DNA of 36,185 bases from a virus. The notes under the pieces are model-generated. The model saw only the letters and a program-made list of their open reading frames with translations. It had not been told where the DNA came from and ran no database searches. Numbering within the stretch: position 1 is the first letter of the stretch; each line of letters opens with the position of its first letter. Positions 4,368-27,785 of this stretch are shown in pieces. Position numbers and translations under genes: made by a program. The stretch is taken from the UHGV virus genome UHGV-0335474, one strand, 5' to 3'.

Positions 4368-4610
4368 ATGGCAGAGATTATTCCCATGACTGAAGAACAG
4401 AAATTCCAGTTAGAGATTTACAAACTGGTCATGAACCAGAACGCAGCCGCAGAAGAAGCATTTCAATTCATTGGCACTGACGAACTGAAGCTTGAGCTAT
4501 TCAAAATTCACTTCCAGTCAGGCGGCGCTAATTCGGATATCACAACCCGCACTATCGAAGCGGTGCGTAAATCGAAGGAAGCGTTAGACCTGTTCACTAC
4601 CGGAGCGTAA
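4368..4610 (+). CDS. Hypothetical protein upstream of terminase
   Basis: 80-aa ORF with GGAG upstream; acidic, helical. No family recognised. Confidence 0.45.
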   Translation: MAEIIPMTEEQKFQLEIYKLVMNQNAAAEEAFQFIGTDELKLELFKIHFQSGGANSDITTRTIEAVRKSKEALDLFTTGA

Positions 4611-4689
4611 ACATGGCAACTCAAGGTTTCGACAACCCATCCAAATTCCGCGATGAATGGGATAAGCAAGCAGAAGGGAAATAATCAAT

Positions 4690-6527: not shown

Positions 6528-6528
6528 T

Positions 6529-8727
6529 ATGGCAGAAAAAAAGATGACTGACTGGCATCGCAAGGTGCTGTGCAACTTTGATAATGCCTGGTCAGCAACG
6601 CAGGATATGCGTGAGCAGATTATTGAGGCTCAACGTTTCGTCCGGGTATCCGGCGCACAGTGGGAAGGCGGTACAAACGCTGGTTACTCATTTGATGAAG
6701 GCAGGTTTGAGCATTACCCGCGCTTTGAACTGAATAAGATTGCCCGTGAATGTGATCGCATCATTGGCGAGTATCGACAGAATCGCATCAGCGTTAAATT
6801 CAGGCCGAAGGACGATAAGGCATCGGAAGCGTTAGCCGAAAAGATGAACGGCAAATTCCGCGCTGACTATCAGGAAACATCCGGTGGCGAAGCGTGTGAT
6901 AACGCATTTGATGATGCCGTAACGGGTGGATTCGGTTGTTTCCGCATGTGTGCCGATTACGAAGATGAAATGGATCCGAGTAACGAGCAGCGACGCATCA
7001 GTCTTCTTCCTGTTTACGACCCAGCGACATGCGTCTTCTTCGATCAGGACAGCAAGCAATATGACCGCTCTGATGCTATGTGGGCTATGGAAATGTTCTC
7101 CATGACGCCTAAAGCGTTCGAGGCTGAATACCCTGATTCCATCGCGGCAAGTCTTTCTCGTGATGACACTGGTACTCAATATGACTGGTCAACTCCTGAC
7201 GCCATCTATGTTGGACGCTACTACGAAGTCCGCATAGAGAAGGTGAAGCTCACAGCATGGCGTAACCCTGTCAGCGGAGAAACGGCAATCTATGATGAAG
7301 AGCAAATCAAAGATATTGTCGACGAGCTGACCGATGGTGCATTCGAACTGATTGGCGAGCGAACGGTGAAGAAACGCCGAGTTTATTGCGGTCTTCTGTC
7401 TGGCGCTGAATGGCTGGAAGAACCGAAGCGTATTCCGGGCGAACATATTCCTCTCATCCCGGTATATGGGCGTCGTTCATTTGTTGATAATCAGGAGCGA
7501 ATCGAAGGCCACGCAGCAAAAGCGATGGATGCACAGCGTCTTGAGAACCTGATGGTTTCCATGATTGCAGATAACGCCACTCAGGCTGGCGGTGATGGCA
7601 TTCCTGTAGTTGATGTTGACATGATTCCTGGTCCTCTTGCCACTCATTGGGCGGAGCGCAACAAAAAGCGCCCGGCGTTCCTGCCGATGGTCAGTCTGAA
7701 AAACAAAAACGGAGATATTACTGCGCAGGCTCAGGTCAGCAGTTATACACCTCCGACACAAATGCCTCCTGCTCTTGCCGGGCTATTGCAGTACACCGGA
7801 ACGGCTATTCAGCAAATTACAGGTGCGTCGCAGCTTGAGAACATGCCGAGCAACGTCGCCACCGATACCGTTGATAGCATCTTTAACCGGATGGACACGC
7901 AGTCCTATATCTACATGGACAACATGGCTAAATCCATGCGTCGCGCTGGCGTTGTGTGGCTTTCTATGGCGCGTGAGGTCTATGGCAGCGATACGCCAAT
8001 GCGCATCGTTAATGAGGACGGCAGCGATGACGTGGCGCTGATGACTGGTGAAGTGGTTGACCGTCAGACAGGGCAGGTTATCGCGCTTAACGACCTTTCG
8101 CAGGGTAACTATGAAGTGACTGTCGATGTTGGTCAGTCGTTCGCTACTCGCCGTGATGCAACGGTTAAGTCGTTACTTTCCATGCTGGCACTTATCCCGC
8201 CTGGAACGCCGAAACACGACCTTGTGTCGTCTCTTATTCTCGACAATATGGACGGCGAAGGGATGGACGACCTTAAAGAATACAACCGCAATCAGTTGCT
8301 TCTGTCTGGCGTTATCAAGCCGAAAACGCCAGAAGAACAGCAAATGGTTGAGCAGGCGAAACAACAACAGGCCAGTCAGCCAGATCCGGCTATGGTTGCT
8401 GCGCAAGGTCAGCTTCTTGCTGGTCAGGCTGAATTGCAGAAAGCGCAGAACGAACAGGCAGCCATTCAGGTTAAAGCATTCCAGGCACAGACTGATGCTC
8501 ATGTTGCAGCGGCAAATGTTGTGAAAATCCTCGCATCTGCCGATAGCCAGCAGAAATCTGATATCCGCGAGGCTCTGAAACTGCTCGGACAGTTCCAGCA
8601 ACAGCAAGGAGACAATGCCCGTGCTGATGCAGAGCTTGTCCTGAAAAGTCAGGCGCAGGGACATGCACAACGCATGGACATCAGCAGCATCCTGCAAAAA
8701 TCAACTCAGCAACAACCACAGCAGTAA
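6529..8727 (+). CDS. Portal protein (P22 gp1-like, with C-terminal Gln-rich barrel)
   Basis: 732 aa immediately after terL; long C-terminal helical Q/A-rich tail as in the P22 portal. Confidence 0.85.
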   Translation: MAEKKMTDWHRKVLCNFDNAWSATQDMREQIIEAQRFVRVSGAQWEGGTNAGYSFDEGRFEHYPRFELNKIARECDRIIGEYRQNRISVKFRPKDDKASEALAEKMNGKFRADYQETSGGEACDNAFDDAVTGGFGCFRMCADYEDEMDPSNEQRRISLLPVYDPATCVFFDQDSKQYDRSDAMWAMEMFSMTPKAFEAEYPDSIAASLSRDDTGTQYDWSTPDAIYVGRYYEVRIEKVKLTAWRNPVSGETAIYDEEQIKDIVDELTDGAFELIGERTVKKRRVYCGLLSGAEWLEEPKRIPGEHIPLIPVYGRRSFVDNQERIEGHAAKAMDAQRLENLMVSMIADNATQAGGDGIPVVDVDMIPGPLATHWAERNKKRPAFLPMVSLKNKNGDITAQAQVSSYTPPTQMPPALAGLLQYTGTAIQQITGASQLENMPSNVATDTVDSIFNRMDTQSYIYMDNMAKSMRRAGVVWLSMAREVYGSDTPMRIVNEDGSDDVALMTGEVVDRQTGQVIALNDLSQGNYEVTVDVGQSFATRRDATVKSLLSMLALIPPGTPKHDLVSSLILDNMDGEGMDDLKEYNRNQLLLSGVIKPKTPEEQQMVEQAKQQQASQPDPAMVAAQGQLLAGQAELQKAQNEQAAIQVKAFQAQTDAHVAAANVVKILASADSQQKSDIREALKLLGQFQQQQGDNARADAELVLKSQAQGHAQRMDISSILQKSTQQQPQQ

Positions 8728-8817
8728 TTAACCCATAACGTGCAATGGCTGTCTTTATGAGGCCTGGCACCCTATTGCCTTCCGATGGGCTGAACATCGA
8801 GTAAACAGGGGTAACAA

Positions 8818-9714
8818 ATGGACCAGATGGCAGAAAACACACCAGAAGTTGAAATCGAAACCGACGCGTCAGAGCAGATTCCTGATGATGTCAAACTGGC
8901 TGAAGAAGTCGAAACAGAAGATGGCAGTGAGTACTCCGGCAATGATGCAGAGAAAGCTACTGAAACTGATGACGACGAATCAGAACAGGAATTCTACTTT
9001 GGTGACGAAAAGCTGGATTCGCCAACCAGCGAAGATGGCGCAGAGCATGGACTGGTAAAACACCTGCGCAAGACGATTAAAGAGAAAGACCGTGAGCTGA
9101 AAGAGCTGATGCGTCAGTCTCAGAAACCCGTCGAGCAGCAGCCGGTAATCACTCAACCACCTCGAATGCCAAAACTGGATGATGAGGACATTGGTTTCGA
9201 TGAAGAAATCTACCAGCAACGCATGGCTAAGTGGGCAGAGGATAACGGCAAGTACCAGCAACAGGAGATGGCTCGCAAGCAGAAGGAGCAGGAGCTTCAG
9301 GCTGCCTATCAAGAGCGATTATCCAAATATCAGCAACGTGTTAAGGCTCTCAAAGTTCCTGGCTATCAGGAAGCTGAGCAGGCCGTACTCGAGGAAATCC
9401 CCATCGAGACACAAAACGCGATCCTGTTTGAGTCAGAGAAGCCGGAAATCGTTGTTCTGGCGCTCGGTCGCAACGCTGAACTGCGCAAGAAACTGGCAGA
9501 AGCTACCAACCCCGTAGCAATTGGTCGTCTGCTGGAACGTATCGAATCGAAGGCCAGAATCATGCCAAAAGCAAAAACCACGGCAGCCACAACCCCGACA
9601 GTTAAGGGGAGCAACGGCGCAGTAATCAATAACCTCGACAAACTTCTCGAAAAAGCACGCGACACCGGTGATTACACCGAATACCGGGCGGCGAAGAACA
9701 AAGCTAAAAAATAA
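8818..9714 (+). CDS. Scaffolding protein
   Basis: 298 aa, highly acidic N-terminus, coiled-coil, between portal and coat (P22 gp8 position). Confidence 0.7.
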   Translation: MDQMAENTPEVEIETDASEQIPDDVKLAEEVETEDGSEYSGNDAEKATETDDDESEQEFYFGDEKLDSPTSEDGAEHGLVKHLRKTIKEKDRELKELMRQSQKPVEQQPVITQPPRMPKLDDEDIGFDEEIYQQRMAKWAEDNGKYQQQEMARKQKEQELQAAYQERLSKYQQRVKALKVPGYQEAEQAVLEEIPIETQNAILFESEKPEIVVLALGRNAELRKKLAEATNPVAIGRLLERIESKARIMPKAKTTAATTPTVKGSNGAVINNLDKLLEKARDTGDYTEYRAAKNKAKK

Positions 9715-9734
9715 TCCATCGGAGCTAAATACCT

Positions 9735-10994
9735 ATGTCTAACCAGTTAACCAAAGACCTCGAAATCCTCTTTGAGAGCGTCATTGATAGTTTTGAGGCG
9801 TCCAATGTCGTTTCCCGCGAGTGCAGCAAGTTCCGACCGGGCGACATTGAAATGCAGCGCGCTGGCGACGTTGTTTATCGCCCTCAGGGCTACCACCTGA
9901 AAACCGTGAGCGGACTTGATCTGACTTCGGCCACTGCAAACTCACTCGTTCAGCGTCAGGTGCCTGCTCGCTTCCGCGAGCCAGAGAACGTCATCTACGA
10001 ACTGGACGCAAAAGAAATGCGCGATCCGTGGCACAAAGAGCAGGCTGGCAAGGCGGCGGGTCGCCAGTTGGCGGCGTGGGTTGATAACATGATCGTCGAT
10101 GAGGTGGTCGCTCGCTCCACCAACGTGGTCACCATTAAATCGGCGTCCACCGGTAGCACTCTCGGCGAAGAACTCTGGAACGCATCGGCTGACGTTGATG
10201 CAATGATGCTGTCCATTGGTGTGCCTCAGGGTGGTCAGCGCAAGGCGTTCTACAACCCGTTCAACTACAAAGACCTGGCTAAGGAGCTTGGCTCTCGCGC
10301 ATATGCGGTCGGTGCAACTCTGACAGCCTATGAGAAAGCTCAGATTCCACCTGTGGCATCCTTCGACAGTTTCCGCGTTGATTATGCTGGCGCAATGAAG
10401 GCTGGTTCAGCTACCGCTGTAACTCTCGGCGGCGCAGTAAAACACAAAGTTACCGCGATGGATTCCAACGGCGCGCCTACCGATAACCGCCAGGGTGACA
10501 TCACCGTATCCACTGCTGACGTACTGGCTGTCGGCGATGCATTCACTATCGCAGGCGTTAACAGTGTCCACATGATCAAGAAGGTGGATACAGGTAAGCC
10601 GCAGGTATTCCGCGTCCTGGCAGTAAATGGCACTACCGTTACCATCAGCCCGAAAATTCTGCCACCAGACAACGCGGATAAGGCGTCTATTCCTTACCAG
10701 AACGTTACCGCCAATCCGGTGGCAAACGCGGCGATCACCATCCTCAACAAGAAGGCTGCGGCTTCCAACATCTTCTTCGCTGAGGGTTCTGTTGAGCTGA
10801 TGTATGGCAAGTTGGCATTCCCTACCGGCCAGGGTCCGCAGGTTATGACCGCAAGGACCGAGCAGGGTGCGACCATCATCATGGCTTACCAGTTCGACGC
10901 TAAATCTGGCAAAACGTGGACTCGCTTCACCACGCTGGCTGGCGCAAGCGTACTGGTCCCGGAATTCACCGGCCTGGTACTGGCTAACCAGTAA
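9735..10994 (+). CDS. Major coat protein (P22 gp5-like)
   Basis: 419 aa, position and size; followed by a strong terminator. Confidence 0.8.
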   Translation: MSNQLTKDLEILFESVIDSFEASNVVSRECSKFRPGDIEMQRAGDVVYRPQGYHLKTVSGLDLTSATANSLVQRQVPARFREPENVIYELDAKEMRDPWHKEQAGKAAGRQLAAWVDNMIVDEVVARSTNVVTIKSASTGSTLGEELWNASADVDAMMLSIGVPQGGQRKAFYNPFNYKDLAKELGSRAYAVGATLTAYEKAQIPPVASFDSFRVDYAGAMKAGSATAVTLGGAVKHKVTAMDSNGAPTDNRQGDITVSTADVLAVGDAFTIAGVNSVHMIKKVDTGKPQVFRVLAVNGTTVTISPKILPPDNADKASIPYQNVTANPVANAAITILNKKAAASNIFFAEGSVELMYGKLAFPTGQGPQVMTARTEQGATIIMAYQFDAKSGKTWTRFTTLAGASVLVPEFTGLVLANQ

Positions 10995-10998
10995 TCCA

Positions 10999-11024
10999 AG
11001 GGGCTTCGGCCCCTCTTTTTTTTT
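10999..11024 (+). terminator. Rho-independent terminator after the coat gene
   Basis: AGGGGC-TTCG-GCCCCT hairpin followed by a T9 run. Confidence 0.8.
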
Positions 11025-11034
11025 GGAGATCGAA

Positions 11035-11223
11035 ATGTCTCAAATCATGCTTTATAAGCCGGGATCGATGATCACCTGCGGCCCCCACTCGCTGGATTAC
11101 ATCATCGTTGATGACGAAGAAGTTAAATCTCACCTGAAAAAAGGCTGGGTAAAAACTCCTGAAGAAACCGCAACGAAGCAAAAAGTGGCTAAGGCGGAAG
11201 AAGATGGCGAAAATGAAGGGTGA
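11035..11223 (+). CDS. Small hypothetical protein (Sf6 gene 6 position)
   Basis: 62 aa after GGAG and ATG at 11035; the track ORF from 10867 is an upstream extension through the terminator. Confidence 0.4.
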   Translation: MSQIMLYKPGSMITCGPHSLDYIIVDDEEVKSHLKKGWVKTPEETATKQKVAKAEEDGENEG

Positions 11224-11665
11224 TCTCGTTCTAAAGGCTTTACGAAAAGCCGGGCTGTATTCCAATGCCACGTTGACAGATGCTGACCCTCAGGCAATTG
11301 AAGATGCCATTAATGACCTCGAAGACATGATGGCAGCATGGCAGGCTAAAGGTATCGAGCTTGGATATCAGTTTGCTGATACAGAAAACGGCATCATGCC
11401 GTTACCTGACGATGATTCAGGTATCCCTGCATGGGCAAATGATGGCGTCGCTTTGAAACTCGCTGTGCAAGTGTGCATGGATAACGTCATTCAGCCGTCA
11501 GACGCTCTCCTTACCGCTGCTGACAGTGCATATCAGACAATCTGCATCGCTTTAACCAAAATACCACCACTTGAGCGGCGAAATGACATGCCTCGCGGTA
11601 GTGGTAACAAAAGCGCGTTTACGTGGAATCGGTTTTACATCGAGAAAGATGATCCGAGTACGTGA
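11204..11665 (+). CDS. Head-to-tail adaptor / head completion protein (P22 gp4-like)
   Basis: 153 aa, KGDLV..ALRK.G...LTD..PQ...DA..DLE.MMA.W pattern matching P22 gp4 as recalled. Confidence 0.7.
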   Translation: MAKMKGDLVLKALRKAGLYSNATLTDADPQAIEDAINDLEDMMAAWQAKGIELGYQFADTENGIMPLPDDDSGIPAWANDGVALKLAVQVCMDNVIQPSDALLTAADSAYQTICIALTKIPPLERRNDMPRGSGNKSAFTWNRFYIEKDDPST

Positions 11666-11674
11666 GGTGAATAA

Positions 11675-13093
11675 ATGCCGATTCAGCAACTTCCGCTTAT
11701 GAAAGGTGTCGGCAAAGACTTTCGAAACGCCGACTATATCGACTATCTGCCAGTGAATATGCTGGCTACGCCCAAAGAAATACTCAACAGCAGCGGATAT
11801 CTTCGCTCATTCCCGGGCATTGCCAAACGTTCTGATGTGAACGGCGTATCGCGGGGCGTCGAGTACAACATGGCGCAGAATGCTGTTTATCGCGTGTGTG
11901 GTGGCAAGCTCTACAAAGGCGAAAGCGAAGTAGGTGACGTCGCCGGAAGTGGTCGCGTATCAATGGCGCATGGTAGGACATCTCAGGCTGTAGGCGTTAA
12001 TGGTCAACTGGTCGAGTATCGCTATGATGGCACGGTTAAAACCGTCTCAAACTGGCCTACTGACAGCGGATTCACACAGTACGAGTTAGGTTCGGTTCGC
12101 GACATTACGCGCTTACGTGGGCGTTATGCGTGGTCAAAAGACGGAACTGATTCATGGTTTATCACTGACCTTGAAGACGAATCGCATCCTGACCGTTACA
12201 GTGCACAATATCGCGCAGAATCGCAGCCGGACGGCATCATCGGCATCGGAACATGGCGAGACTTCATCGTATGCTTTGGTTCATCAACGATTGAATATTT
12301 CTCCCTGACTGGTGCAACCACCGTTGGTGCTGCTTTGTATGTCGCACAGCCATCGCTGATGGTGCAGAAAGGCATTGCCGGGACTTACTGCAAAACGCCG
12401 TTTGCTGATTCGTATGCGTTCATCAGCAATCCGGCAACGGGTGCGCCGTCTGTGTATATCATCGGCTCTGGTCAGGTGTCACCAATTGCCAGCGCGAGCA
12501 TTGAGAAAATCCTCCGCTCCTACACTGCTGATGAACTGGCTGATGGCGTGATGGAATCGTTGCGCTTTGATGCTCATGAGTTGCTGATTATCCACCTTCC
12601 ACGCCATGTTCTCGTGTACGACGCATCTTCAAGTGCCAATGGTCCGCAATGGTGTGTACTGAAAACAGGCTTGTATGACGATGTGTACCGCGCTATCGAC
12701 TTCATTTACGAAGGCAATCAGATAACGTGCGGAGATAAGCTGGAATCGGTTATCGGCAAATTGCAGTTCGATATCAGCAGCCAGTATGGGCTACAGCAAG
12801 AACATATTTTATTTTCACCATTAATAAAGGCAGATAATGTCATTATTAATGACCTTGAATTAGAAACATCAGGCGGCGTGTGTGATAGAATAGATAAAAT
12901 ATTTATATCAGCAACAACAGATGGAATAAATTACGGCAGGGAACAAATGGTCGTATTGCAATCTCCATTTGTATATGACAATCGAGTCTTATGGCGCAGG
13001 ATTGGAAGAGTTAGACGTCTCATCGGTTTTAAATTCAGAGTTATTGCAAAAGGCCCGGTTACATTATCCGGACTGTCTATTCGTACAACATAA
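11675..13093 (+). CDS. Tail accessory / head completion protein (P22 gp10-like)
   Basis: 472 aa, same length and position as P22 gp10 / Sf6 gp8. The last ~300 nt are AT-rich. Confidence 0.65.
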   Translation: MPIQQLPLMKGVGKDFRNADYIDYLPVNMLATPKEILNSSGYLRSFPGIAKRSDVNGVSRGVEYNMAQNAVYRVCGGKLYKGESEVGDVAGSGRVSMAHGRTSQAVGVNGQLVEYRYDGTVKTVSNWPTDSGFTQYELGSVRDITRLRGRYAWSKDGTDSWFITDLEDESHPDRYSAQYRAESQPDGIIGIGTWRDFIVCFGSSTIEYFSLTGATTVGAALYVAQPSLMVQKGIAGTYCKTPFADSYAFISNPATGAPSVYIIGSGQVSPIASASIEKILRSYTADELADGVMESLRFDAHELLIIHLPRHVLVYDASSSANGPQWCVLKTGLYDDVYRAIDFIYEGNQITCGDKLESVIGKLQFDISSQYGLQQEHILFSPLIKADNVIINDLELETSGGVCDRIDKIFISATTDGINYGREQMVVLQSPFVYDNRVLWRRIGRVRRLIGFKFRVIAKGPVTLSGLSIRTT

Positions 13094-13114
13094 ATCGAAA
13101 CTTAAGGAGTAGAT

Positions 13115-13660
13115 ATGTTAAGTGAAGATATTAGAGATGTAGTTGGTTATGAGGGGCTTTATGCGGTAACTCGTGATGGTAGAGTTTACTCTCACTCAAG
13201 GATAATAAATACATGCCATGGGGCTACTCGATTAATGAAGGGTAGATGGCTGAAGCCAGCAAAGGATGGGGGCGGATATCTATTTGTTGGTCTCTGTAAG
13301 GATGGAGAGGTTAAACCAAAAAAAATACATCGAATTGTTGCTGAGGCATTTATTGAAAACAAAGAATCTAAACCATTCATCAACCATATAGATAATAATA
13401 ATCAAAATAATAATGTAGAAAATCTTGAATGGTGTACGCAACATGAAAACATGCAGCATTGCTCTAGAAGCGGTAGGGTGAAAATACCTCATTATGTGGG
13501 TTCTGAACATCCATCGTCCAAATTAAATGAAGATATAGTTCTGGTCATAAAAAATGATTTGATTACGCCAATTAGCGAGTTAGCTGCAAGATATAATGTG
13601 ACTGTTCAGGCCATACACGCCATTAAAAAAGGGAAGACATGGAGGCATGTGAATGGCTGA
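13115..13660 (+). CDS. HNH homing endonuclease (NUMOD4 + HNH_3 type)
   Basis: 181 aa, [14 protein letters not shown] (NUMOD4-like) and [24 protein letters not shown] (HNH). Markedly AT-rich; AGGAG SD upstream. Confidence 0.8.
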
Positions 13661-14354
13661 TCCCAATCTCAACGTGCCAGTAACTATCCAGGCCACCCGG
13701 CTAGACACATCAATCCTGCCGCGAAATATCTTCTCGCAGTCGTACCTGCTGTACGTTATCGCTCAGGGTACCGATGCCAGTAACGTGGCTAACAAGGCAA
13801 ATCAGGCTGGTCAGGGCGCTTACGATGCTCAGGTGAAAAACGATGAACAGGACGTCGAACTGGCTGATCACGACGCAAGAATCACCGCAAACACAAAAGC
13901 GATAAATCTCCTTGAGGTCAGGTTAACAACCGCCGAAGGGAAGATAGTCGTACTGCGTAGCGATGTTGATTACTTGCTGGATGAGGTTATCGATATTCAG
14001 GCGCATCTGGTCACTGTTGACCAAAGACTGGATGACGTAGAAAACGATGTCTCTGGCATTAAGAGTGATTACGTATCGAAAACCGTAACCGAATTGCAGT
14101 CTCTTGAGTCACCGCTGGATGTAAAAACATCATATTCAGTTGATGGAATTCAGGTTGTTGGAGCAAGAAATACCGGATGGACTGCAGCCACAGGTACGCC
14201 ACTTCTTGGCTCATTCAACGCTAACCAGTCATACACGGTCGGCACTACGTACACACAATCCGAAGTCGCAGCTCTCGCTACAGGTTTGCAGCAGGCGCGG
14301 CAGCGTATTCTGGCGCTTGAAACAGCACTTAGATTACATGGGCTGATTGACTGA
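13653..14354 (+). CDS. Tail needle protein (P22 gp26-like)
   Basis: 233 aa, [25 protein letters not shown]... with heptad coiled-coil and a C-terminus matching P22 gp26 as recalled. Confidence 0.85.
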
Positions 14355-14809
14355 TGATTACATTCAAACCAACGCGAAACATCGACCTGATAGAAGCCGT
14401 GGGAAATCACCCCGACATTATCGCTGGTAGCAACAACGGTGATGGATACGACTACAAGCCTGAATGCCGTTACTTTGAGGTTAACGTGCACGGTCAGTTT
14501 GGCGGCATTGTTTACTATCAGGAGATTCAGCCGCTTACATTCGATTGCCACGCCATGTACCTGCCAGAGGTTCGTGGATTCAGCAAGGAAATCGGGCTGG
14601 CGTTCTGGCGATACATTCTGACTAACACCACCGTTCAGTGCGTCACATCGTTCGCTGCACGCAAATTCCGCCACGGGCAGATGTACTGCGCAATGATTGG
14701 CCTTAAGCGTGTCGGAACCATCAAGAAATACTTCAAGGGCGTGGATGACGTGACGTTTTACAGCGCCACACGTGAAGAACTAATCGACTTCCTGAATCAC
14801 GGGAGATAG
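14354..14809 (+). CDS. P22 gp14-like virion/ejection-associated protein
   Basis: 151 aa, gene-order equivalent of P22 gene 14; ATGA overlap with the needle gene. Confidence 0.5.
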   Translation: MITFKPTRNIDLIEAVGNHPDIIAGSNNGDGYDYKPECRYFEVNVHGQFGGIVYYQEIQPLTFDCHAMYLPEVRGFSKEIGLAFWRYILTNTTVQCVTSFAARKFRHGQMYCAMIGLKRVGTIKKYFKGVDDVTFYSATREELIDFLNHGR

Positions 14810-14811
14810 CC

Positions 14812-15501
14812 ATGTTATATGCATTTAAGCTGGGCAGAAAACTGCGCGGCGAGGAACCTTATTGCCCTGAAAAAGGCGGGAAAGGTGGCTCTGATAAAAG
14901 TGCAAAGTATGCCGCAGAAGCTCAGAAGTATGCCGCAGACCTGCAAAATCAGCAGTTCAATACCATCATGAACAACCTGAAGCCGTTTACTCCTCTGGCT
15001 GGGAAGTATGTCGGCAGCCTTGAGAACTTATCGTCTCTGGAAGGGCAAGGTCAGGCACTTAACCAGTATTACAACTCTCAGCAGTACAAAGATCTTGCTG
15101 GTCAGGCTCGCTATCAGAGTCTGGCGGCAGCGGAAGCAACAGGTGGATTGGGTTCCACCGCAACCAGTAATCAGTTAGCAACAATCGCACCAACGCTTGG
15201 TCAGCAATGGCTGTCTGGACAAATGAACAATTACAACAACCTGGCAAATATCGGTCTTGGCGCTCTTCAGGGGCAGGCAAACGCCGGGCAGACATATGCC
15301 AACAACATGAGTCAGATTTCGCAGCAAAGTGCGGCTCTTGCAGCGGCAAATGCCAACAGACCATCAGCAATGCAATCTGCTATTGGCGGAGGTGCGTCTG
15401 GTGCTATTGCTGGGGCCGGACTTGCGAAATTAATTGGTTCATCAACTCCGTGGGGGGCTGCGATCGGCGGCGGTCTTGGTCTGCTTGGCTCGTTGTTTTA
15501 A
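14812..15501 (+). CDS. Ejection (internal virion) protein, P22 gp7-like
   Basis: 229 aa, Gly/Ala/Gln-rich with hydrophobic C-terminus; position in the gp7-gp20-gp16 ejection cluster. Confidence 0.6.
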   Translation: MLYAFKLGRKLRGEEPYCPEKGGKGGSDKSAKYAAEAQKYAADLQNQQFNTIMNNLKPFTPLAGKYVGSLENLSSLEGQGQALNQYYNSQQYKDLAGQARYQSLAAAEATGGLGSTATSNQLATIAPTLGQQWLSGQMNNYNNLANIGLGALQGQANAGQTYANNMSQISQQSAALAAANANRPSAMQSAIGGGASGAIAGAGLAKLIGSSTPWGAAIGGGLGLLGSLF

Positions 15502-15511
15502 GGGGTAATCA

Positions 15512-16963
15512 ATGGCTACGTGGCAACAGGGTATTAATTCTGGTGGTTTTCTGGCTGGAATTGGTGCGCAAAATGAGAATGCGCCAAAGGCAAGCGACAT
15601 TAACGCAACGCTTGGTCTGATTCGCGAAAACAATGAACTGGCTCGTTCAGGTGCAAATAACGTTGGTCTGACCGCGTTACGTGGTCTGGCTGGAGTTGCT
15701 GATATTTATAAGCAGCAGCAACAGCAGGAACGTAAAGCGGCATTCCAGAAAGGTTATGCGGATGCTTATGCGTCCGGCGACAGGGAGCAGATGCGTAATC
15801 TTATTACAGCATTCCCCGAAGAGTTTGAGGAAGTCCGTAAAGGCATGGGGTATGTCGATGACGCCCAGCGGAATGATTTTGGCAATCTGGCGCTCAAGGC
15901 TCAGGTAGCTTCGTCGCTTGGTCCGGGTGCATTTGGCAGGTTCATGATGGATAACGAAAAGGAGATGCGTCGTTTAGGTATCCCTCCAGAAACTATTGCG
16001 GAAATGCAGGTTAATGACCCGCAGGGCTTCCAGCACTTCGCAGGTAATCTGGCACTATTTTCTCTCGGTCATGAGAAGTATTTCGATATCAAAGATCAAA
16101 TGGAAGGTCGGGATATTGAGCGTGGCAAGTTGGCAGAGACGATTCGCAGCAATAAAGCTGGGGAAGGTTTAAAGGCGCAAAGCATTGCTGTTAGCCGTGA
16201 AAACTCCCTGCGCACTGCTGGAGGTGCTGTTCCTGCATCTGTTAAAGAATATCAATATTTCAACAGCCTGTCTCCAGAGCAACAAAAGACATATCTTCGT
16301 GTTCGAGGTCGTCCTGATGCTGGCGGGGAGAATGTTGTGCAACTGGCAGATGGCAGAACGGTAACGGTTGGTAGGAAGCTTCACGGCGCTGGTGCTAATG
16401 CGTTCTACGAAGGAATAGACAACGAGGGCAATATGATTCGCGTCCCCGCAAGTTCTATTGCTGCTCCGGCTACATCGGCAGCTAATGCACAGAATTACGA
16501 AATGAAGAAAGATCTTGATGCAATTTCTGGCGCATCAATTGACGATCTTGGCTTCATGACAGGTATTACAGGTTCTTCAGGTTCTTTTGCTCTTGGTGCA
16601 GATATTCGTAGCAGGGCATCTGGTGTTGAGGAGAGGAGGCTATACAACGCTGCACAGCGAATCATGGGCAAAATGCAAAATCAGGGGATTGCAGCAGCCC
16701 GAGATATGGGGGCATCTGGCATCAACACCGAAGCAGAGGCCAATAGGTATTTTCAGGGTATGCCAAAGCCTGATTTCTCAAGTCCTGAAGCGCTGCAACA
16801 ATCAATGCGCGACATTCAGCAATATACCGACAATTACAACCAGCAATATAACGTTAATGTTGGTAATGGCGGGAAGAAATCATCAAGGCAACAGCCAGCT
16901 ACTCAGCAATCAGCAGGAGGTAGCTACACGTCAAAATCAGGCATTCAATTTACGGTGGAATGA
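15512..16963 (+). CDS. Ejection protein, P22 gp20-like
   Basis: 483 aa, position and size. Confidence 0.6.
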
Positions 16964-18975
16964 TGAAAGTAACTGCAAATGGTAAGACATTTACCTTTCC
17001 TGATGGTACGAGCACGGAAGATATTGGGTCCGCCATTGATGAGTATTTTGCTGGTCAGTCAGCGCCAACACAACAAGGTGTTCAGCAATCGCCAGCAGAC
17101 AACTCACTTGCATCAGGATATGCACAGCTTGCCACTCAGCAGAAGGAAGGACTAGATCGCTCTGCTGAGCAAGGGGCTGTTTTAGGTGCTGCAATGCGCG
17201 ATGCCGTTACCGGTGAAAGCCGAATGACACCAGAAATGGAGAGACTGCAAAATGTTGGGGCTGCCCCTGAGTTGAACTCACTAAGCATGGATGCCCTGAA
17301 GGCTGGATGGTCTCAACTTTTCGGCTCCGACGCGTCTCAGGAAAAGATTCTTCAGAGTATGGGGGCGAAATTAAGGCAGGATGAGAAGGGGAACACTATC
17401 GTTTCCCTGCCATCCGGTGATTATGCCCTGAACAAGCCAGGTTTATCACCGCAAGACCTGACTTCGTTTCTTGCTAATGCGTTAGCGTTCACACCAGCGG
17501 GCAGGGCTGGAACGGTGCTTGGTGCCATAGGGAAATCAGCTGCTACAGATTTAGCACTACAGGGTGGCACCAGCCTTGCTGGCGGAGAAGATATTGATCC
17601 TGCACAAACGGTAATTTCTGCTGGCATTGGTGGTGTTGGCAAGGGGCTGGAAAATACAGTTAGTGCGGTTTCCAGGGCTGTTCGCGGTGAGATGTCACCG
17701 GAAGCAAAGGCTGCTGTCGATTTTGCGTCGGAAAGAAACCTGCCGTTAATGACCAGTGACACGCTGAAAGATAAAACCTTTATGCAGAGTCAGGCTCAGA
17801 CATTAGGCGAAAGAGTTCCTTTTTTTGGAACCGGTAAGAATCGGCTGAATCAACAACAAGCACGAGAAAATTTAGTCAGAACATTTAGCGATGGTCTGGG
17901 TGGCATTTCTGATAAACAGCTTTATGAATCTGCGACTAAAGGGCAACAAAAATTCATTGAGGCAGCAGGAAAGCGATATAACCGCATAATTGACGCTATG
18001 GGGGATACCCCTGTCGATCTCTCAAACACGGTAAAAGCTATCGACAATCAGATTGCCGTGTTAAGCCGCCCGGGCAAATCTCAGGATAGAGCCGCGGTAA
18101 AAGTCTTGCAGCAATTTAAAGACGATATCACCAGCGGACCCAATGACCTGCGTCTGGCGAGAGAAAACAGAACTGACCTTCGAAAGCGGTTCATGAATTC
18201 AAACGAGACTGTTGATAAAGACACGCTCCAGAAAGCCAGCGATATTGTCTACAAGGCATATACAGCGGATATGAAAAAAGCAGTATCCCAAAAACTAGGC
18301 TCAGAAGAAGCTGCCAATATGTCTAGGGTTGATCGCTCATGGGCTAGATTCAATGACATGATGGGAAGAACGCGCGTTCAAAAGGCAATAGCCAGCGGCA
18401 AGGCTACACCTGAGGATGTAACAAAACTCGTTTTTAGCCAAAACCCATCAGAACGTTCTCAGCTTTACAGGCTTCTGGATGACAATGGTAGGCAAAACGC
18501 ACGAGCAGCCATAGTTCAGAATGCTGTAGATAAGGCGACTGATCCGTCTGGAAATATTAGTGTTGAAAAGTTTATTAATGCGTTACACCGGAACAGGAAG
18601 CAATCAGCAACTTTCTTTAAAGGCGTACATGGAAAGGAACTGGACGGCGTTATTAAATACCTCAACGATACAAGACACGCGGCAAAAGCGAACGTTCAAA
18701 ACTTAAATGGTCAGCAGCTTTATGGATTGTTAGTTGGTGGTGGCATCATAAACGCAGCAGTATTAGCGGGGATGCTAAAAACGGCTGCGTTTGTTGTTCC
18801 TGCTGCTGGTGTCGTAGGAGGAGCAGCGAAGGCATACGAAAGCCCTGTTATACGAAATGCCTTGTTACGTCTGGCAAATACGCCAAAAGGTAGCACAGCA
18901 TATGACAGAGCGATCAGTACGGTCACACAATCGCTCACCAGAGTCGCACAGGCATCACAAAAAGAAGCTCAATAA
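16960..18975 (+). CDS. Ejection protein, P22 gp16-like
   Basis: 671 aa, position; hydrophobic segment near the C-terminus. Confidence 0.6.
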
Positions 18976-19397: not shown

Positions 19398-19479
19398 CTA
19401 CTGGTGATAGAACGATGATTGCAGATTGATATTACGATCTGTACACTTCCAGTAGAACCGTGTGTTCTCTGGAGGCGAT

Positions 19480-20133
19480 ATGGACAACATCTACATAGCT
19501 AGTTTTGGTGATATAGACATTCGTTTTGTTAATGTCGACGATGATGTGTTTGTGTCTCAAGGGGATTTTGTCCGTGCAATGGAGTCGTGTCTCACTGATG
19601 ATATGAAACACATAGCTGGTATTTTCATCAGTGGTGGTGTGAGAATTGTTGGCGATTCTAGTGATAGCCGCTCTGCAATACTTGGCGACAGTCTAATTGG
19701 GCCAGCTATTCATTTTCATGCGGTAGGCAATATTCTTACCTCATTGGTTGAAATGAGTAATGAGGAAAACCCCTCTTTAAGAGAGAGTTGTTATCGCATG
19801 AATAGCTTATTGCAGTGGTACACGATAGCTTTATCCAAGGCCGATGAGTATTTTGGTCGTGATGTTGTTGACTTGCTATCTTCAGTAAAAAGGCGTCTTG
19901 ATCGACTTAACGCTCCATATACCGTAAACGTCCTTCATGATGGGGGTGTTTGGGTTGCAACATGCGATGAGCTTGGATTAGTTACAGAAGCTCCAGATTA
20001 TGAATCTCTTACTGAAAGAGTGTGGGATGTCGCTGGAGATATGCTGGTTGAGAATGGTATAGATCAAGACGTAGAAAGCCTGCGCTTTTCCTTCGTTCAG
20101 GAGCAGGTGTCTGATGACAGGATGGCGCTATAA
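19480..20133 (+). CDS. HicB-like antitoxin-domain protein with N-terminal Bro-N/AntA-like extension
   Basis: C-terminal YTVNVLHDGGVWVATCDELGLVTEAPDYESLTERVWDVAG fits the HicB N-domain pattern; N-terminal FGDIDIRFVNVDDDVFVSQGDFVRAME resembles Bro-N. GGAGG SD before the ATG at 19480; track ORF begins at 19462. Confidence 0.5.
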   Translation: MDNIYIASFGDIDIRFVNVDDDVFVSQGDFVRAMESCLTDDMKHIAGIFISGGVRIVGDSSDSRSAILGDSLIGPAIHFHAVGNILTSLVEMSNEENPSLRESCYRMNSLLQWYTIALSKADEYFGRDVVDLLSSVKRRLDRLNAPYTVNVLHDGGVWVATCDELGLVTEAPDYESLTERVWDVAGDMLVENGIDQDVESLRFSFVQEQVSDDRMAL

Positions 20134-20652: not shown

Positions 20653-21189
20653 TCAAACAACCCACCAGTTTGCCTGATTGGATACCAGCCTTGCAGTTTT
20701 TATGGAATTAATTATGCCATGCTCAAGAGCCTTGTTAGCATCCAAAATGGTCGAGTCTGCTATCAGGGATGCCCACCTAATATGGGTTCCGATGTCGATA
20801 TTGAACGTCTCAACGAAGCGATCAAGATCGTTATCGAGGCATTTCCCGTACTCTCTCAATCTGGCATGGTCGGCGGCTGGGGAGGCAAAGCACCATAATA
20901 GAGGATGTAACAGGAATCTTGATAATGGGTTTGCGAAACGTTCTGAGCCAGCCAGGAAAACGATATTAGCTATGGATTCAACATTGCTTATGTTGTGAGT
21001 TCTAACGGTAACAGGGAGTGACTTAAGAAAGTTATACGCAGTAAAGCCAGCGGCAGTTTCCCCTCCCTGACTTGATATATGGATATTTAATTCAGTTGCG
21101 CCTTGAGATAATGCGGTGAGACAGTGGTTCTGAAGTTGCCCAACAGTGGCAGTGTTAACGGGGCATAAGAAATGAATTGTGTGCAGCAT
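20653..21189 (-). CDS. ClpP-like serine peptidase (S14-family fold)
   Basis: 178 aa; aligns by eye to the ClpP core (ISSQGG vs INSPGG, Ser in NVESIAN vs GQAASMG, His in RFLLHPL vs RVMIHQP). Start overlaps the mnt stop (TAATG). Confidence 0.65.
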   Translation of the reverse strand: MLHTIHFLCPVNTATVGQLQNHCLTALSQGATELNIHISSQGGETAAGFTAYNFLKSLPVTVRTHNISNVESIANIVFLAGSERFANPLSRFLLHPLLWCFASPAADHARLREYGKCLDNDLDRFVETFNIDIGTHIRWASLIADSTILDANKALEHGIINSIKTARLVSNQANWWVV

Positions 21190-21443
21190 TATTTATCATC
21201 CTTGCCATAAATCTTTTTAAGTGTCTCAAACACAACGGCCTTGAACTGCTCTGCTTGCTGATCAGCCAAGCGTTCAGCTTCGTCGCGATATCCTGTAATC
21301 GGTGATGGTTTTGATAGTGCATCCTGAACGATTTGTAATAACTCAGAGTTCATTGACCTTCCGTTAGCCTCGGCTCTTAATTTCAATTTTTCTCTTACTT
21401 CCAAAGGCATACGGAAGTTAAAGTGCGGATCGTCTCTAGCCAT
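21189..21443 (-). CDS. mnt: Mnt repressor (ribbon-helix-helix)
   Basis: 84 aa, MARDDPHFNFRMPLEVREKLKLRAEANGRSMNSELLQIVQDALSKPSPITGYR..., near-identical to P22 Mnt as recalled. Confidence 0.85.
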   Translation of the reverse strand: MARDDPHFNFRMPLEVREKLKLRAEANGRSMNSELLQIVQDALSKPSPITGYRDEAERLADQQAEQFKAVVFETLKKIYGKDDK

Positions 21444-21466: not shown

Positions 21467-21730
21467 CTAACTTTCGTCTTTATTGTTGCTATACATGCAT
21501 TTCAACTTCTCAACATCATGTTCAAGATCTATCAATCGTGATGCTATAGTTGCAAGGTCTAGTGCTTGAATGTGTTTATTTTTTTCGGTCCATGCTTCAA
21601 GTGCCGCGACCATCTCAGCATTTAATGAACGAGAATTAGCCTCAGCCAGTTCAATAAGACGTTCCTTTATCTCTACAGGAAGCCTCAGATTCACTTGAGG
21701 GTTTTTGTACTTACGATCAGACATCGGCAC
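21467..21730 (-). CDS. Arc/Mnt-family ribbon-helix-helix DNA-binding protein
   Basis: 87 aa, VNLRLPVEIKERLIELAEANSRSLNAEMVAALEAW: RHH motif. First gene of the leftward mnt operon. Confidence 0.6.
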   Translation of the reverse strand: MPMSDRKYKNPQVNLRLPVEIKERLIELAEANSRSLNAEMVAALEAWTEKNKHIQALDLATIASRLIDLEHDVEKLKCMYSNNKDES

Positions 21731-22233: not shown

Positions 22234-23157
22234 ATGACGAGTGTAGCAATTGCAGAACATACAATCAACGTTCCATTCCACGGCGCAGAGCTTTATGTTG
22301 TCAATCACAACGGCGAACCGTATACCCCAATGAAACCTATCGTTGAGGGAATGGGGCTAGACTGGAAATCTCAACATAAGAAGATTTCTCAACGCTTCTC
22401 GAAGGGTATGGTGGAAATCACCATACCTTCTGCCGGTGGGGTGCAAGCCATGATTTGTATGGCTTTACGAAAATTGGCAGCTTGGTTGAACAGCATCAGT
22501 CCTAACAAAGTCCGCCCTGAAATCCGCGACAAGGTAATCCAGTATCAGGAAGAGTGTGACGATGTGCTCTACGAGTACTGGACTAAAGGCTATGTAGTTA
22601 ACCCACGCAAATCTAAAAAGGCGTTGCCGGGTAAAATCACCACTGAACAGCAGGAAGCCATTAAACAACTCGTCATGAGTCGCGGTCAGTCTCTGCCAAA
22701 AGAAAAACAGGCTAAGGCGATGATCACCATGTGGTCGTCACTGAAATCCCATTTTGGATGTTCGTACAAAGAAATCAGTGAGGAGCAGTTTACCGAAGCA
22801 CTGTCACTTGCTGCTCGCGTTCCGCTTGAAGGTGAGTTCATTGGCAAACAAGAGAAGAAAACCAACGAGCTTTCTGCAAAAGAAGCAAACAGCCTTGTAT
22901 GGTTATGGGATTATGCCAACCGTTCACAGGCATTATTCCGCGAACTGTATCCGGCGCTAAAACAAATTCAATCGAACTATTCCGGCAGATGCTACGACTA
23001 CGGTCATGAGTTCTCGTATGTTATCGGAATGGCGAGAGACGTTTTAATCAATCACACACGAGATGTTGATATTAATGAGCCAGACGGACCAACGAATCTT
23101 TCCGCATGGATGAGACTTAAGAATAAAGAATTACCTCCTTCAGTACATAACTACTGA
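22234..23157 (+). CDS. ant: Antirepressor (Ant; AntA-like N-terminal domain)
   Basis: 307 aa downstream of arc in an immI-like layout; N-terminal FHG.ELYVV..NGEP pattern. Confidence 0.65.
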   Translation: MTSVAIAEHTINVPFHGAELYVVNHNGEPYTPMKPIVEGMGLDWKSQHKKISQRFSKGMVEITIPSAGGVQAMICMALRKLAAWLNSISPNKVRPEIRDKVIQYQEECDDVLYEYWTKGYVVNPRKSKKALPGKITTEQQEAIKQLVMSRGQSLPKEKQAKAMITMWSSLKSHFGCSYKEISEEQFTEALSLAARVPLEGEFIGKQEKKTNELSAKEANSLVWLWDYANRSQALFRELYPALKQIQSNYSGRCYDYGHEFSYVIGMARDVLINHTRDVDINEPDGPTNLSAWMRLKNKELPPSVHNY

Positions 23158-23176
23158 CAGATAACCAACGCAACGA

Positions 23177-23199
23177 CCCAGCTTCGGCTGGGTTTTTTT
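23177..23199 (+). terminator. Rho-independent terminator after ant
   Basis: CCCAGC-TTCG-GCTGGG hairpin followed by T7. Confidence 0.8.
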
Positions 23200-23257
23200 A
23201 TGCCCAAAATTCACCGTAGCCATGCTGCGGCGATTCCTTGTGTCTGGAGCAAATTAA

Positions 23258-25945
23258 ATGAGAGACATTACAGCCAATGTGATCGTATCGATGCCTTCGC
23301 AACTCTTCACTATGGCGCGTTCTTTTAAAGCCGTAGCTAATGGCAAAATTTATATCGGTAAAATTGACACTGATCCTGTAAATCCAGAAAACCAGATTCA
23401 GGTCTATGTGGAGAATGAAGACGGTTCTCACGTTCCTGTTTCGCAACCAATAATCATTAACGCTGCTGGATATCCTGTATATAACGGACAGATTGCCAAA
23501 TTCGTTACCGTGCAAGGCCATTCTATGGCTGTTTATGATGCGTATGGTGCGCAGCAGTTCTATTTTCCTAATGTGCTGAAGTATGACCCTGATCAGTCAT
23601 TGAAATATGTAGAAGGGGCATTGCTTGTTACTGACTTAGGTAATGGGACGTTTAAGAATAGTAGAAAAGACGTTGCCATTGGGGATAATCTAACAGGAAC
23701 CAATTTTATTAGAATAAACGGCGGCGTCTATAAATGCACTCCAGTTGCAACTGGAATTGTTACTGAGATCAAACATAGATACATTATCGCAGGCGGGGTT
23801 AAAAGCTACCTGTCTCATATTTCCAGGCATGTCAGTGGTACGCGTAGGCCGCTGAACTGGAAATTAGAATTCAGCATCATAGACGATGAGATTACCGCAG
23901 ATCTTAAAGATCAGTATGGTTACACGACCATGGGATTTCAGGGGATTTACATAGACAGCAATGATGGAATGGTATACATCGGCTGGCAGACGCTAGACCC
24001 CGCATCGGTATGGGTTACGGTGCATGACTGGGTAACAGGAGCATTGGTAACACGTCTTCATTTTCCGAATAACGTTGGTGCACCAGAAGGCATCCACGTT
24101 TACCGAGTGGCAGGACAGCGTTACATCCTGCTGCCGTACAGCCCATCTCGCACTATCAGAATTTACCCTATCGAAGATCCGCGTACGCTGGTTGATAAAA
24201 CGCAGATTACAAACTTCACTGAATCAACACGCCTTGGAGTGCGATATCAGTTTAGTGGCTTTGGTAATACCCTGATATACGAAAATGCGGATATGGGTTG
24301 GCCGAAAATTTTTGATGTTGAGACAGGTGTATCCAATATCTTTAACACACTGGATATTAACAGCCTTATAGAAGGATCTTACAGTCCAATGGGGACTATT
24401 ACGGTTGATGCAAATGTTGGAGGTCGCGGAGCCGGTAAACCAAAACGGCAGGGTGTCGCTCTTGGTTCTCAACGGATATTTGCTGGTATTGGTGCATCTA
24501 CCACGGCGGGATCTGGAAATACTTTCGCAGGGTTGCAGGGTTATATTGAGTACAGCCTTAATGGTTCAGAATTAGGTCAGTACCTGCTGTCACCTGCAGA
24601 TTTCAAAACATACTGGGATAGTTATTCAGGGAAGAGTGTTTACTCCACTGAAAATGAGGGGGTGCAGTCTTGTGATATTTCTGGCTCTGAGGAATTGTAT
24701 CTTCTACAGTCTATTCGCTATGACAATGGGGGCGGATCAAATTATAGGACTTTAAACATCATTCGCGCTAACTGTCCATCTAATGAACCTGGAACAGTAG
24801 ACATGACTCCGCTATCCAATGCCTCATCACAGTTATTTAACCCTCGCGGAAGGGTGATTAACGCTGGCCGTCACCCTGTAAACCCGGCTGATGGTATTGC
24901 GCTATTTACATCGGCACAGGCTATTTGTGACTATTTGCGGAATACAGATGCAGGTAGATATGTGACATATCTTGAACAGGATATGCCACTGTTTGAAGGT
25001 GGGCCATCTGCGCCAGGACAGATGACGCTGCCAGCATTCTGCCTATTGCAGATCGACTTCATCAACGGCGATACCTGGGAAATTACAGTTAATGGAACTA
25101 ACAGGGCTAATAATTATACAGGAAGGATTTCCAAAAACGGCGGGTACAACTCTTTTACTAAGGTGTCCTCCCGCAGCATGTCGATTCTCGGATCCCCTGG
25201 TCTGGTTGATGTATCAATTCGCTCACCTAACTCACTAAATCTTCCAGAATTTGCTGGAGACTGGTCTACTGGTGTAAGTATAGGAGCTGCAGGTGGGGTG
25301 ACAAACTGGCAGCCAGAAGGAACAGGTAACGGAGCATTATGGGAGTCAGGATATGCAAAAAACCGTGTGTTGCAGATATTCATGTCCACAACATCAAAAC
25401 TGTTCTTCCGCTACGCAGACGATGCTATTCGCGCAGGTAACACAGGCTGGGCTGAGGCATGGTCGTCGCTGAACACGACCGTCGATTCAAGTGGTTTCAT
25501 CAAAAAAGCCTCTCCGGTTGTGAAGATTTTCTCAGACGGTAGTAGTGAAACAAATCGCGAATCAGATGGGGTAACCGTCACACGGCTGGCATTGGGTGAA
25601 TATCTGATTGAGGGTTGCGTAGGTCTGAATGCAGATGCTTCATGGGGGGGGATTGATGGTGGATTTGAAATACCGCAGGACCGAAACAAGCAGCCGCTCA
25701 TCTGGCTGGATTATGTTGTTAACCAAGATGGATCTGTGTTGGTGAAAACGTTTCACCGCACTCATGATAACTCGCCCGTTTTTGCACGTAACGACATCCC
25801 TGGTGTTTCGAACGGTGACCCGATCGACATTCCTGCTAATCAATTCGTTTCTGTGCGAGTACAGATGCCTGAGGATTCTGCATGGAATAAGCTTAAGGAA
25901 CAACTAAATAAGGCTGAATTGATAGAAGATGATGTTGTGGAATAG
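23258..25945 (+). CDS. Tailspike protein (P22 gp9-like head-binding domain plus divergent receptor-binding domain)
   Basis: 895 aa. The first ~110 aa match the P22 tailspike N-terminus as recalled (ITANV.VS.P...F....[33 protein letters not shown]...NVLKYDPDQ); the remainder is unrelated to P22/Sf6 spikes. Confidence 0.85.
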
Positions 25946-26606: not shown

Positions 26607-27785
26607 ATGGCTATAAGCGACACAAAACTGCGTACTATTTATGGTAAACCATATTCGGGCCCACAAGAAGTGGCTGATGCCGATGGCCTCAGCGTACGAA
26701 TTTCACCGAAGGGGGTCATCCAGTTCCAGTACCGCTATCGCTGGCATGGCAAGCCTAATCGACTTGGGCTTGGTCGATACCCATCCCTGTCTTTGAAGGA
26801 TGCCAGACAGATCACTGCTGACTTGCGAAAGCTCTATTTCTCAGGAACGGATCCACGCACCTATTTTGAAGAGAAGGTGGAGAACTCCATGACGGTCGCC
26901 CAGTGTCTCGACTACTGGTTCGACAATTACGTCTCTACAACTCTCAGAGAAAAGACCCAGGCACTTTACCGATCAACGGTTATGAAGCGCATGCATGACG
27001 CCTTTCCTAATCGTCCGGCATCTTCTATCACGGTTAAGCAATGGGTTGACCTGCTTACCGAAGAAGAAAGAGATAATCCACGCCGAGCAAGGCAGGTGCT
27101 AAGTCAACTAAGATCAGCAATAAGTTGGTGCATGCGGCGTCAGTTGATAGATAGTTGCGCAATTATGAGCATCCAGCCAAGGGACTTCGGCTCACGCGCT
27201 GAGGTAGGGGATCGGGTACTGTCGTATCACGAACTGGCTAAGATTTGGCTTGCTATTGAAAGAAGCCGTGCTTCTACGTCAAATAAGCTGCTTCATCAGA
27301 TGCTTATGCTGTGGGGGGCGAGGCTCTCAGAGCTTAGGCTGGCAACAAAGACAGAATTTGACCTGCTGGACAACGTATGGACCGTACCGAAAGAGCATAG
27401 CAAGATGGGTAATGTTATCCGCCGTCCAATCTTCGAACAAATTAAGCCTTTTCTCGAAAAGGCCATGACAACGTACAATGATGTTCTTTTCCCTGGAGAA
27501 GACATAAACAAACCGATCAGCATCGCTGCAGCCAACCGATTCGTAAATAGAATAAGGGGAGGGATGGATCTAGGTTACTGGCGAACACACGATTTCAGAA
27601 GAACGCTTGTTACACGGCTGTCCGAGATGAATGTCGAGCCTCATGTTACTGAGCGAATGCTCGGTCATGAACTTGGCGGGATAATGTCCGTATACAATAA
27701 ACACGACTGGATAGAGGCTCAGCGCAAAGCGTATGAGCTTCACGCTGATAAATTGTTCTGGCACATCAGGAGCATTTCTGATTAA
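26607..27785 (+). CDS. int: Tyrosine integrase
   Basis: 392 aa; conserved HDFRRT and GHELGGIMSVYNKHDW (H-x-x-R...Y catalytic region). Confidence 0.9.
   Translation: MAISDTKLRTIYGKPYSGPQEVADADGLSVRISPKGVIQFQYRYRWHGKPNRLGLGRYPSLSLKDARQITADLRKLYFSGTDPRTYFEEKVENSMTVAQCLDYWFDNYVSTTLREKTQALYRSTVMKRMHDAFPNRPASSITVKQWVDLLTEEERDNPRRARQVLSQLRSAISWCMRRQLIDSCAIMSIQPRDFGSRAEVGDRVLSYHELAKIWLAIERSRASTSNKLLHQMLMLWGARLSELRLATKTEFDLLDNVWTVPKEHSKMGNVIRRPIFEQIKPFLEKAMTTYNDVLFPGEDINKPISIAAANRFVNRIRGGMDLGYWRTHDFRRTLVTRLSEMNVEPHVTERMLGHELGGIMSVYNKHDWIEAQRKAYELHADKLFWHIRSISD

Follow-up and report, generated by a model that had tools for sequence, protein, structure and literature searches.

Which surface structure is recognised by a tailspike that carries the head-binding domain of phage P22 in front of a long receptor region unlike that of P22 or Sf6? 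This question is raised by a gene in the virus genome UHGV-0335474, of which a stretch of 36,185 nucleotides (the window) was analysed. Read from the window, the gene is an 895-amino acid (aa) open reading frame (ORF) without interruption at 23258..25945 on the + strand. Our results make it fairly probable that it encodes a P22-like tailspike with a mobile module of ~780 aa, which has a propeller core and most likely recognises the K51/K108 group-2 capsule of Escherichia coli.

Adaptor and receptor region of the tailspike

The ORF divides into the following parts:

23258..23596, + strand: P22-type head-binding (virion adaptor) domain, aa 1-113, matching Pfam PF09008 (1-113/113, E 1.2e-66)
23597..23854, + strand: beta-rich neck or linker, aa 114-199, with beta hairpins in residues 21-75 of the AlphaFold2 (AF2) model (predicted local distance difference test, pLDDT, ~70-82)
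23855..24802, + strand: predicted five-bladed beta-propeller of the AF2 model, aa ~200-515, likely ligand-binding and possibly catalytic
24803..25462, + strand: post-propeller region, aa 516-735, poorly modelled (pLDDT mostly 24-77)
25463..25945, + strand: C-terminal tail-fibre end domain PF25670 (aa 739-872) and a helix, aa 736-895 plus stop codon

An earlier note on this DNA had assigned the first ~110 residues to the P22 gp9 head-binding domain, which was confirmed by the full-length match to PF09008 as well as by protein and DNA alignments. Among PDB sequences, the adaptor aligned with Sf6 gp14 (7sg7_A, E 1e-63) and P22 gp9 (2xc1_A and 8tvr_A, E ~1e-49), and at the DNA level it matched the known P22-like phages CUS-3 (98.5 %), HK620 and Sf6. 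This DNA match is limited to nucleotides (nt) 1-340 of the gene and stops at the 'boundary sequence' annotated in CUS-3. No alignment to the full-length tailspike chains of P22 and Sf6 (623-667 aa) was obtained past residue 114, and the protein is 228-272 aa longer than these tailspikes, both in agreement with what had been claimed for the remainder. Furthermore, no near-identical characterised tailspike, which would have spoken against a receptor region of its own kind, was detected in 50,697 phage records or among solved structures.

For aa 115-700, no sequence match to Pfam, NCBIfam or the PDB was found. The structure of aa 115-895 was predicted with AF2 as a monomer from an alignment of 13 sequences, giving a pLDDT of 64.9 overall and of 80-93 for aa ~200-515, in which ~twenty beta strands form five four-stranded blades. 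Structure prediction and fold search, the route that the earlier note had suggested for the receptor region, therefore led to a five-bladed beta-propeller, with propellers as top structural matches. In a Foldseek search against the PDB, the best hits were the receptor-binding proteins (RBPs) of the Staphylococcus aureus phages P68 (6iab/6q3g), phi11 (5efv) and 80alpha (6v8i) with E 3e-12 to 2e-10; the alignments to P68 and phi11 span ~582 columns and extend past the propeller. The next class was bacterial glutaminyl cyclase, which is also five-bladed (3e-6). As in the staphylococcal RBP family, a five-bladed platform is followed by C-terminal beta domains in the predicted model, whereas the right-handed parallel beta-helix receptor/endoglycosidase domain of P22-type tailspikes is replaced by the predicted propeller. 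The region of aa 516-735 is kept in six close homologues and sits where staphylococcal RBPs have their 'tower'. Within the propeller, W252, F269, E277, G278, P308, K396, Q398, G412, P446, E465, N466, E467 and D515 are invariant in relatives down to 22-30 % identity.

At the sequence level, single-sequence hhalign comparisons with phi11 Gp45 and P68 gp17 were not significant (E 0.68 and 0.26), and those pieces of the profile-profile alignments that are in register were weak (P 0.016 and 0.15). In register, Q228, R397-Q398-G399 and E465-x-E467-G align with Q165, M329-Q330-G331 and E385-x-E387-G of Gp45. Q165 and Q330 line the proposed N-acetylglucosamine (GlcNAc) pocket in the phi11 structure (PMC4901313).

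The receptor region of ~780 aa had been described as unlike the receptor domains of P22 and Sf6. This holds, but the region is neither without known relatives nor undivided: it is modular, and aa 739-872 belong to PF25670 (E 2.1e-59, 199.8 bits against a gathering cutoff of 27). With 55-86 % identity, this domain recurs in short tail-fibre proteins of enterobacteria (more than 376 clusters). Because it sits where remote relatives carry an S74 intramolecular chaperone, it probably helps trimer folding or stability, or makes a secondary contact to the cell surface. An amphipathic helix is predicted behind it at aa ~875-893 (nt ~25880-25936); the corresponding segment is helical in the six close homologues, while its sequence varies.

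Distribution of the module and surface glycans of its carriers

The central module was found in six 90 %-identity clusters among 5.8 billion proteins and in 11 representatives among 1.84 billion proteins, and aa 115-739 had no tblastn match in 50,697 deposited phage genomes. A search with a 5-sequence alignment yielded six IMG/VR contigs matching at 99-100 % and one propeller relative among single genomes of 185,579 species, with 73 % identity, in Kluyvera intermedia. This relative lies at 6001-7002 of the locus extracted from strain INSAq229, the only species-representative genome that has one. Complete E. coli genomes carried the propeller in 14 of 5,426 cases, with 15 copies in total.

Six close homologues share a common sequence from ~residue 118 to the C-terminus and differ in their N-terminal adaptors. 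In E. coli XJ55, a 949-aa 'phage tail protein' with another N-terminus is 100 % identical over aa 198-877, and identity to it climbs from 48 % to 100 % across aa 118-198. The neck thus holds a second recombination junction (aa ~158-197), which is visible in this epsilon15-type fusion: the N-terminus of the XJ55 protein shows 87-89 % identity to Uetakevirus-type phages of E. coli and 71 % to the tailspike of epsilon15. In remote relatives the propeller is combined with T7-fibre-like, Tail_spike_N or tail-collar N-termini and with Peptidase_S74 C-termini. Since both adaptors and C-termini differ, the propeller is best described as a receptor-binding cassette that is swapped among phage tail proteins.

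Two observations were made on individual carriers. NZ_LS992166.1 harbors the module twice (1558598-1561285 and 1373411-1375015), on a P22-like and an epsilon15-like prophage, which makes it a double lysogen for podoviruses that share their predicted specificity. In the hospital-wastewater strains B1.H1.18 and B1.H1.1, the P22-like phage is present as separate 39.9-kb records (NZ_CP146561.1 and NZ_CP146567.1), whose propeller region is 100 % identical to that of the window; excision or active replication of the phage may account for the separate records.

As RBPs of temperate phages should track the surface glycan of their lysogens, carriers and non-carriers were compared for their O-antigen and capsule loci. 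The O loci of the carriers belong to at least three types (OgN12-like, O15 and O88). MS14384, SCU-109 and ECamp083 share a common rml/glf-type O locus that is present in 18 genomes, and MS14384 has been published as OgN12:H18, sequence type (ST) 963. KE40 and OZ546993 are O15, and XJ55 is O88. The module was present in 3 of the 18 OgN12-type genomes and, among the matches listed, in at least 2 of the 100 O15 genomes, 40 of which lay outside these matches. As a side observation, the EpsG-family O-antigen polymerase in the O locus of MS14384 is split into two ORFs (15783-16046 and 16063-16758 of the extracted locus), and a single EpsG gene is annotated in most of the other 17 genomes with an OgN12-type O locus; the split may be a true polymerisation defect or a sequencing error.

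A different picture was obtained for the capsule. In KE40, the serotype-specific genes of the kps locus encode a Stealth protein (363 aa), a CDP-glycerol glycerophosphotransferase/TagF-like protein (1173 aa) and a 427-aa protein. This Stealth/TagF-like kps region 2 was found in 31 of 5,426 genomes, and all module carriers (14/14), including the chromosomes of B1.H1.18 and B1.H1.1, were among them. The hypergeometric probability of this co-occurrence is 1.2e-33 if genomes are treated as independent, and 1.7e-7 to 8.7e-10 when the count is reduced to 3-4 independent acquisitions. Independence is supported by the three O types, the two locus variants, the two prophage backbones and the widely differing chromosomal positions among the carriers.

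The locus was named by comparison with published tables, in which K51_9 is a 363-aa Stealth protein and K51_10 a 1173-aa PF04464 protein (PMC13171606 supplements), while K108 has counterparts of both at ~99 % and differs in a later gene (PMC13171606). Exactly two variants of region 2 were found in the genomes, of which one was matched in full and the other over the first 76 % only. Because the gene lengths and the two variants match the tables, the locus was assigned to the K51/K108 pair, and with this inferred identity the module is restricted to hosts with a K51/K108-type kps region 2 (14/14). O15:K52 clones are known, from which K52 had been our first guess. This type was rejected, as its gene set differs and K52_10 is an 829-aa protein with hexapeptide repeats (PMC13171606).

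In the kps locus of KE40 (1624-17459 of the extracted locus), kpsFEDUCS is directly followed by kpsMT, behind which lie the serotype-specific genes; all share a single orientation. In the usual layout of group-2 capsule loci, region 2 is in the middle. The KE40 layout fits the rearranged one reported for K51, K52 and K7 (PMC13171606).

Taken together, the claim that the receptor region implies a different polysaccharide specificity was strengthened, as its predicted fold is a five-bladed propeller and not a parallel beta-helix, and as it co-occurs with one capsule type and not with an O antigen.

Proposed binding, possible cleavage and competing explanations

In the proposed mechanism, the N-terminal 113 residues dock the trimer onto a P22-type tail, as shown by homology, and this adaptor would be joined to the mobile receptor module at the canonical recombination boundary. 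The propeller core would be of the same structural type as the teichoic-acid-binding 'platform' of Staphylococcus phage RBPs. From the perfect co-occurrence, the receptor is probably the K51/K108 capsule, and the tailspike is therefore probably not specific for an O antigen. This capsule is a teichoic-acid-like polymer of the glycosyl-phosphate type, for whose synthesis a Stealth hexose-1-phosphate transferase and a TagF-like enzyme are responsible. The K51 repeat is alpha-GlcNAc-1-phosphate. Chemical publications deal with K51 as an oligo(glycosyl phosphate) antigen, and there is a cross-reaction with the capsule of group A meningococci (PMC2188001). The probable binding site is the propeller's central pocket, lined by E277, K396, Q398, E465, N466, E467 and D515, and a ligand of similar chemistry would agree with the likeness to proteins that bind GlcNAc-decorated teichoic acid.

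The same pocket may cleave the polymer, e.g. at phosphodiester bonds, because a phage with a short tail gains access to the outer membrane only through the capsule. The invariant Glu/Asp/Lys cluster would suit catalysis, the CUS-3 tailspike is annotated as an endosialidase, and to our knowledge capsule-targeting podoviruses carry depolymerases. We consider the chances for and against this putative activity to be about even. Its counterpart is a module that acts purely as a lectin-like adhesin for K51/K108 without depolymerase, so that the virion would arrive at the membrane by binding reversibly or where the capsule is sparse. No enzymatic activity is known for the closest structural relatives (PMC4901313), and the same mode has been proposed for phi11 Gp45; moreover, no match to a hydrolase, lyase or phosphodiesterase family was found in Pfam, NCBIfam or PDB sequences. 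The need to cross the capsule and the residues of the pocket speak for cleavage, and we regard a pure adhesin as a serious possibility that nonetheless falls short of an even chance. A still more specific version, in which a Gp45-type propeller was recruited by P22-like and epsilon15-like E. coli podoviruses, both binds and cleaves the K51/K108 capsule and would stand for a new, phosphodiesterase-type class of phage capsule depolymerase, is put forward tentatively and is, as a whole, rather unlikely.

Recognition of the K51/K108 capsule also has to be weighed against receptors other than this capsule. O-antigen specificity is the default for P22-like phages, and the gene lies at the gene-9 position, so that an ordinary tailspike of the kind found in P22, Sf6 and HK620 had to be considered, whose receptor domain would have diverged but would still bind and cleave a single O polysaccharide. 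However, lysogens with three unrelated O loci carry modules of at least 99 % identity, the module was present in 3 of 18 OgN12-type genomes and, among the matches listed, in at least 2 of 100 O15 genomes, and the predicted fold is not a beta-helix. When the O loci of MS14384 (OgN12-type), KE40 (O15) and XJ55 (O88) were examined as candidate determinants, the module followed none of them, and we consider O-antigen specificity highly improbable. It is less remote, though still unlikely, that the capsule link reflects hitch-hiking in a few K51/K108 lineages and that the true receptor is an outer-membrane protein, the lipopolysaccharide core, the enterobacterial common antigen or a ligand of the PF25670 domain. 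Clonality is evident among several carriers (ST963 includes both MS14384 and SCU-109), and the C-terminal domain is highly conserved in fibres of many enterobacteria, as expected if its ligand is conserved. On the other hand, at least three O types and two K-locus variants are represented among the carriers, their prophages have two unrelated backbones and differ in chromosomal location, two strains have the phage as a free record of 39.9 kb, and 14/14 against a background of 0.57 % is hard to reach by drift.

Several points weigh against recognition and cleavage of the K51/K108 capsule by a staphylococcal-type propeller. The module is absent from 17 of the 31 K51/K108-type genomes, and co-occurrence in lysogens is indirect evidence with clonality as a partial confounder, as at least two carriers are ST963. 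The K type comes from the agreement of gene lengths, domains and locus variants with published tables and not from alignment to a reference locus. The fold is of moderate overall confidence and comes from a monomer prediction with a shallow alignment. PF21311, the Pfam family precomputed for staphylococcal RBPs, was not matched at E<=1 in the Pfam scan, and the propeller-only profile-profile comparison recovered a two-blade unit (probability 81 %, P 1.2e-5) that is out of register. Finally, because Gp45 has no demonstrated enzymatic activity (PMC4901313), a depolymerase would be without precedent in this fold group.

Genomic setting and comparison with known systems

The window is that of a P22-like temperate phage, with genes for a large terminase, a P22 portal, a P22 coat protein, gp10, the antirepressor Ant and an integrase. 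Given these neighbours, the tailspike ORF is in the gene-9 position, and its order is of the P22 type, after the ejection genes and immI/ant and before att/int. The following features flank it:

22234..23157: antirepressor gene ant, upstream of the tailspike gene
23175..23201, + strand: intrinsic-terminator-like hairpin with T-run at the end of the upstream ant (8-bp stem, 5 GC pairs)
23246..23249, + strand: GGAG Shine-Dalgarno sequence, read 8 nt before the ATG at 23258
26607..27785: integrase gene, downstream of the tailspike gene

Several further ORFs were noted. A 178-aa ORF in the immI-like region (20653..21189, - strand) has a Clp-protease domain (PF00574, E 2.2e-11), an unusual passenger for this region of a P22-like phage; directly upstream of it lie two small ORFs (21189..21443 and 21467..21730, both - strand) that by eye have the look of Arc/Mnt-type repressors. 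Between the ejection-protein genes and the immI-like region, the C-terminus of a 223-aa ORF (19462..20133, + strand) matches DUF1902 (E 3.5e-10). A 107-aa ORF overlapping the start of the tailspike gene (23198..23521, - strand) is unsupported and probably spurious.

K51 is among the K types most strongly linked to invasive E. coli disease in a 2026 survey (PMC13171606), and neither the literature searched nor 50,697 phage records yielded a phage or depolymerase for the K51/K108 capsule. A binding module specific for K51/K108 would give a typing reagent and a candidate anti-capsule enzyme, and would be a swappable host-range cassette that is already found on two adaptors in nature.

With P22 gp9, Sf6 gp14 and HK620 gp9, the tailspike shares PF09008, the position between immI/ant and att/int and the boundary at ~codon 113. 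It differs from them in the predicted lack of a parallel beta-helix, in its additional 228-272 aa and in its likely target, a capsule instead of an O antigen. The closest concept is the endosialidase tailspike of CUS-3, in which a head-binding domain of the P22 type (98.5 % identical at the DNA level in nt 1-340) is combined with a capsule-specific propeller module. CUS-3 is specific for K1, itself a group-2 capsule, and endosialidases combine a sialidase propeller of six blades with a Peptidase_S74 chaperone. In contrast to the endosialidases (GH58; CUS-3, K1F), five blades are predicted here, the end domain is PF25670 and the capsule is a different one; neither the six-bladed sialidase propeller nor the C-terminal Peptidase_S74 of phage endosialidases left a signature in Pfam. 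Receptor modules are well known to be swapped behind the head-binding domain of P22, and with CUS-3 as a capsule-specific, propeller-containing example, the general kind of tailspike described here is already known as well.

The C-terminal ~150 aa of gp12, the proximal protein of the long tail fibre of the Kuravirus SU10 (7z47_D), are homologous to aa 727-872 (E 6.6e-61), and the remainder of that protein is unrelated. Because only residues 1-90 of SU10 gp12 were built (PMC9509320), this entry gives no coordinates for the PF25670 domain.

No characterised phage, solved structure or paper on the module was found in phage records, the PDB or the literature, and a Gp45-type five-bladed propeller on the tailspike of a Gram-negative podovirus, tied to a teichoic-acid-like K antigen, appears to be undescribed. 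The best structural matches by two methods, phi11 Gp45, the 80alpha RBP and P68 gp17, consist of a five-bladed platform and further beta domains, and their blade motifs (xQG...D, PEG / ExEG) are akin to those found here. Their ligand, GlcNAc-decorated wall teichoic acid, is also a phosphodiester-linked glycopolymer. They differ from the present protein in having a coiled-coil stem where it has a P22 head-binding domain, as well as in the C-terminus and in the host, which is Gram-negative here. If our interpretation is correct, a fold described to date only in wall teichoic acid-binding phages of Gram-positive cocci would not be confined to Gram-positive hosts and would be linked to phosphodiester-linked glycopolymers; if the module both binds and cleaves the capsule, one receptor-binding fold would track one polymer chemistry across the Gram divide.
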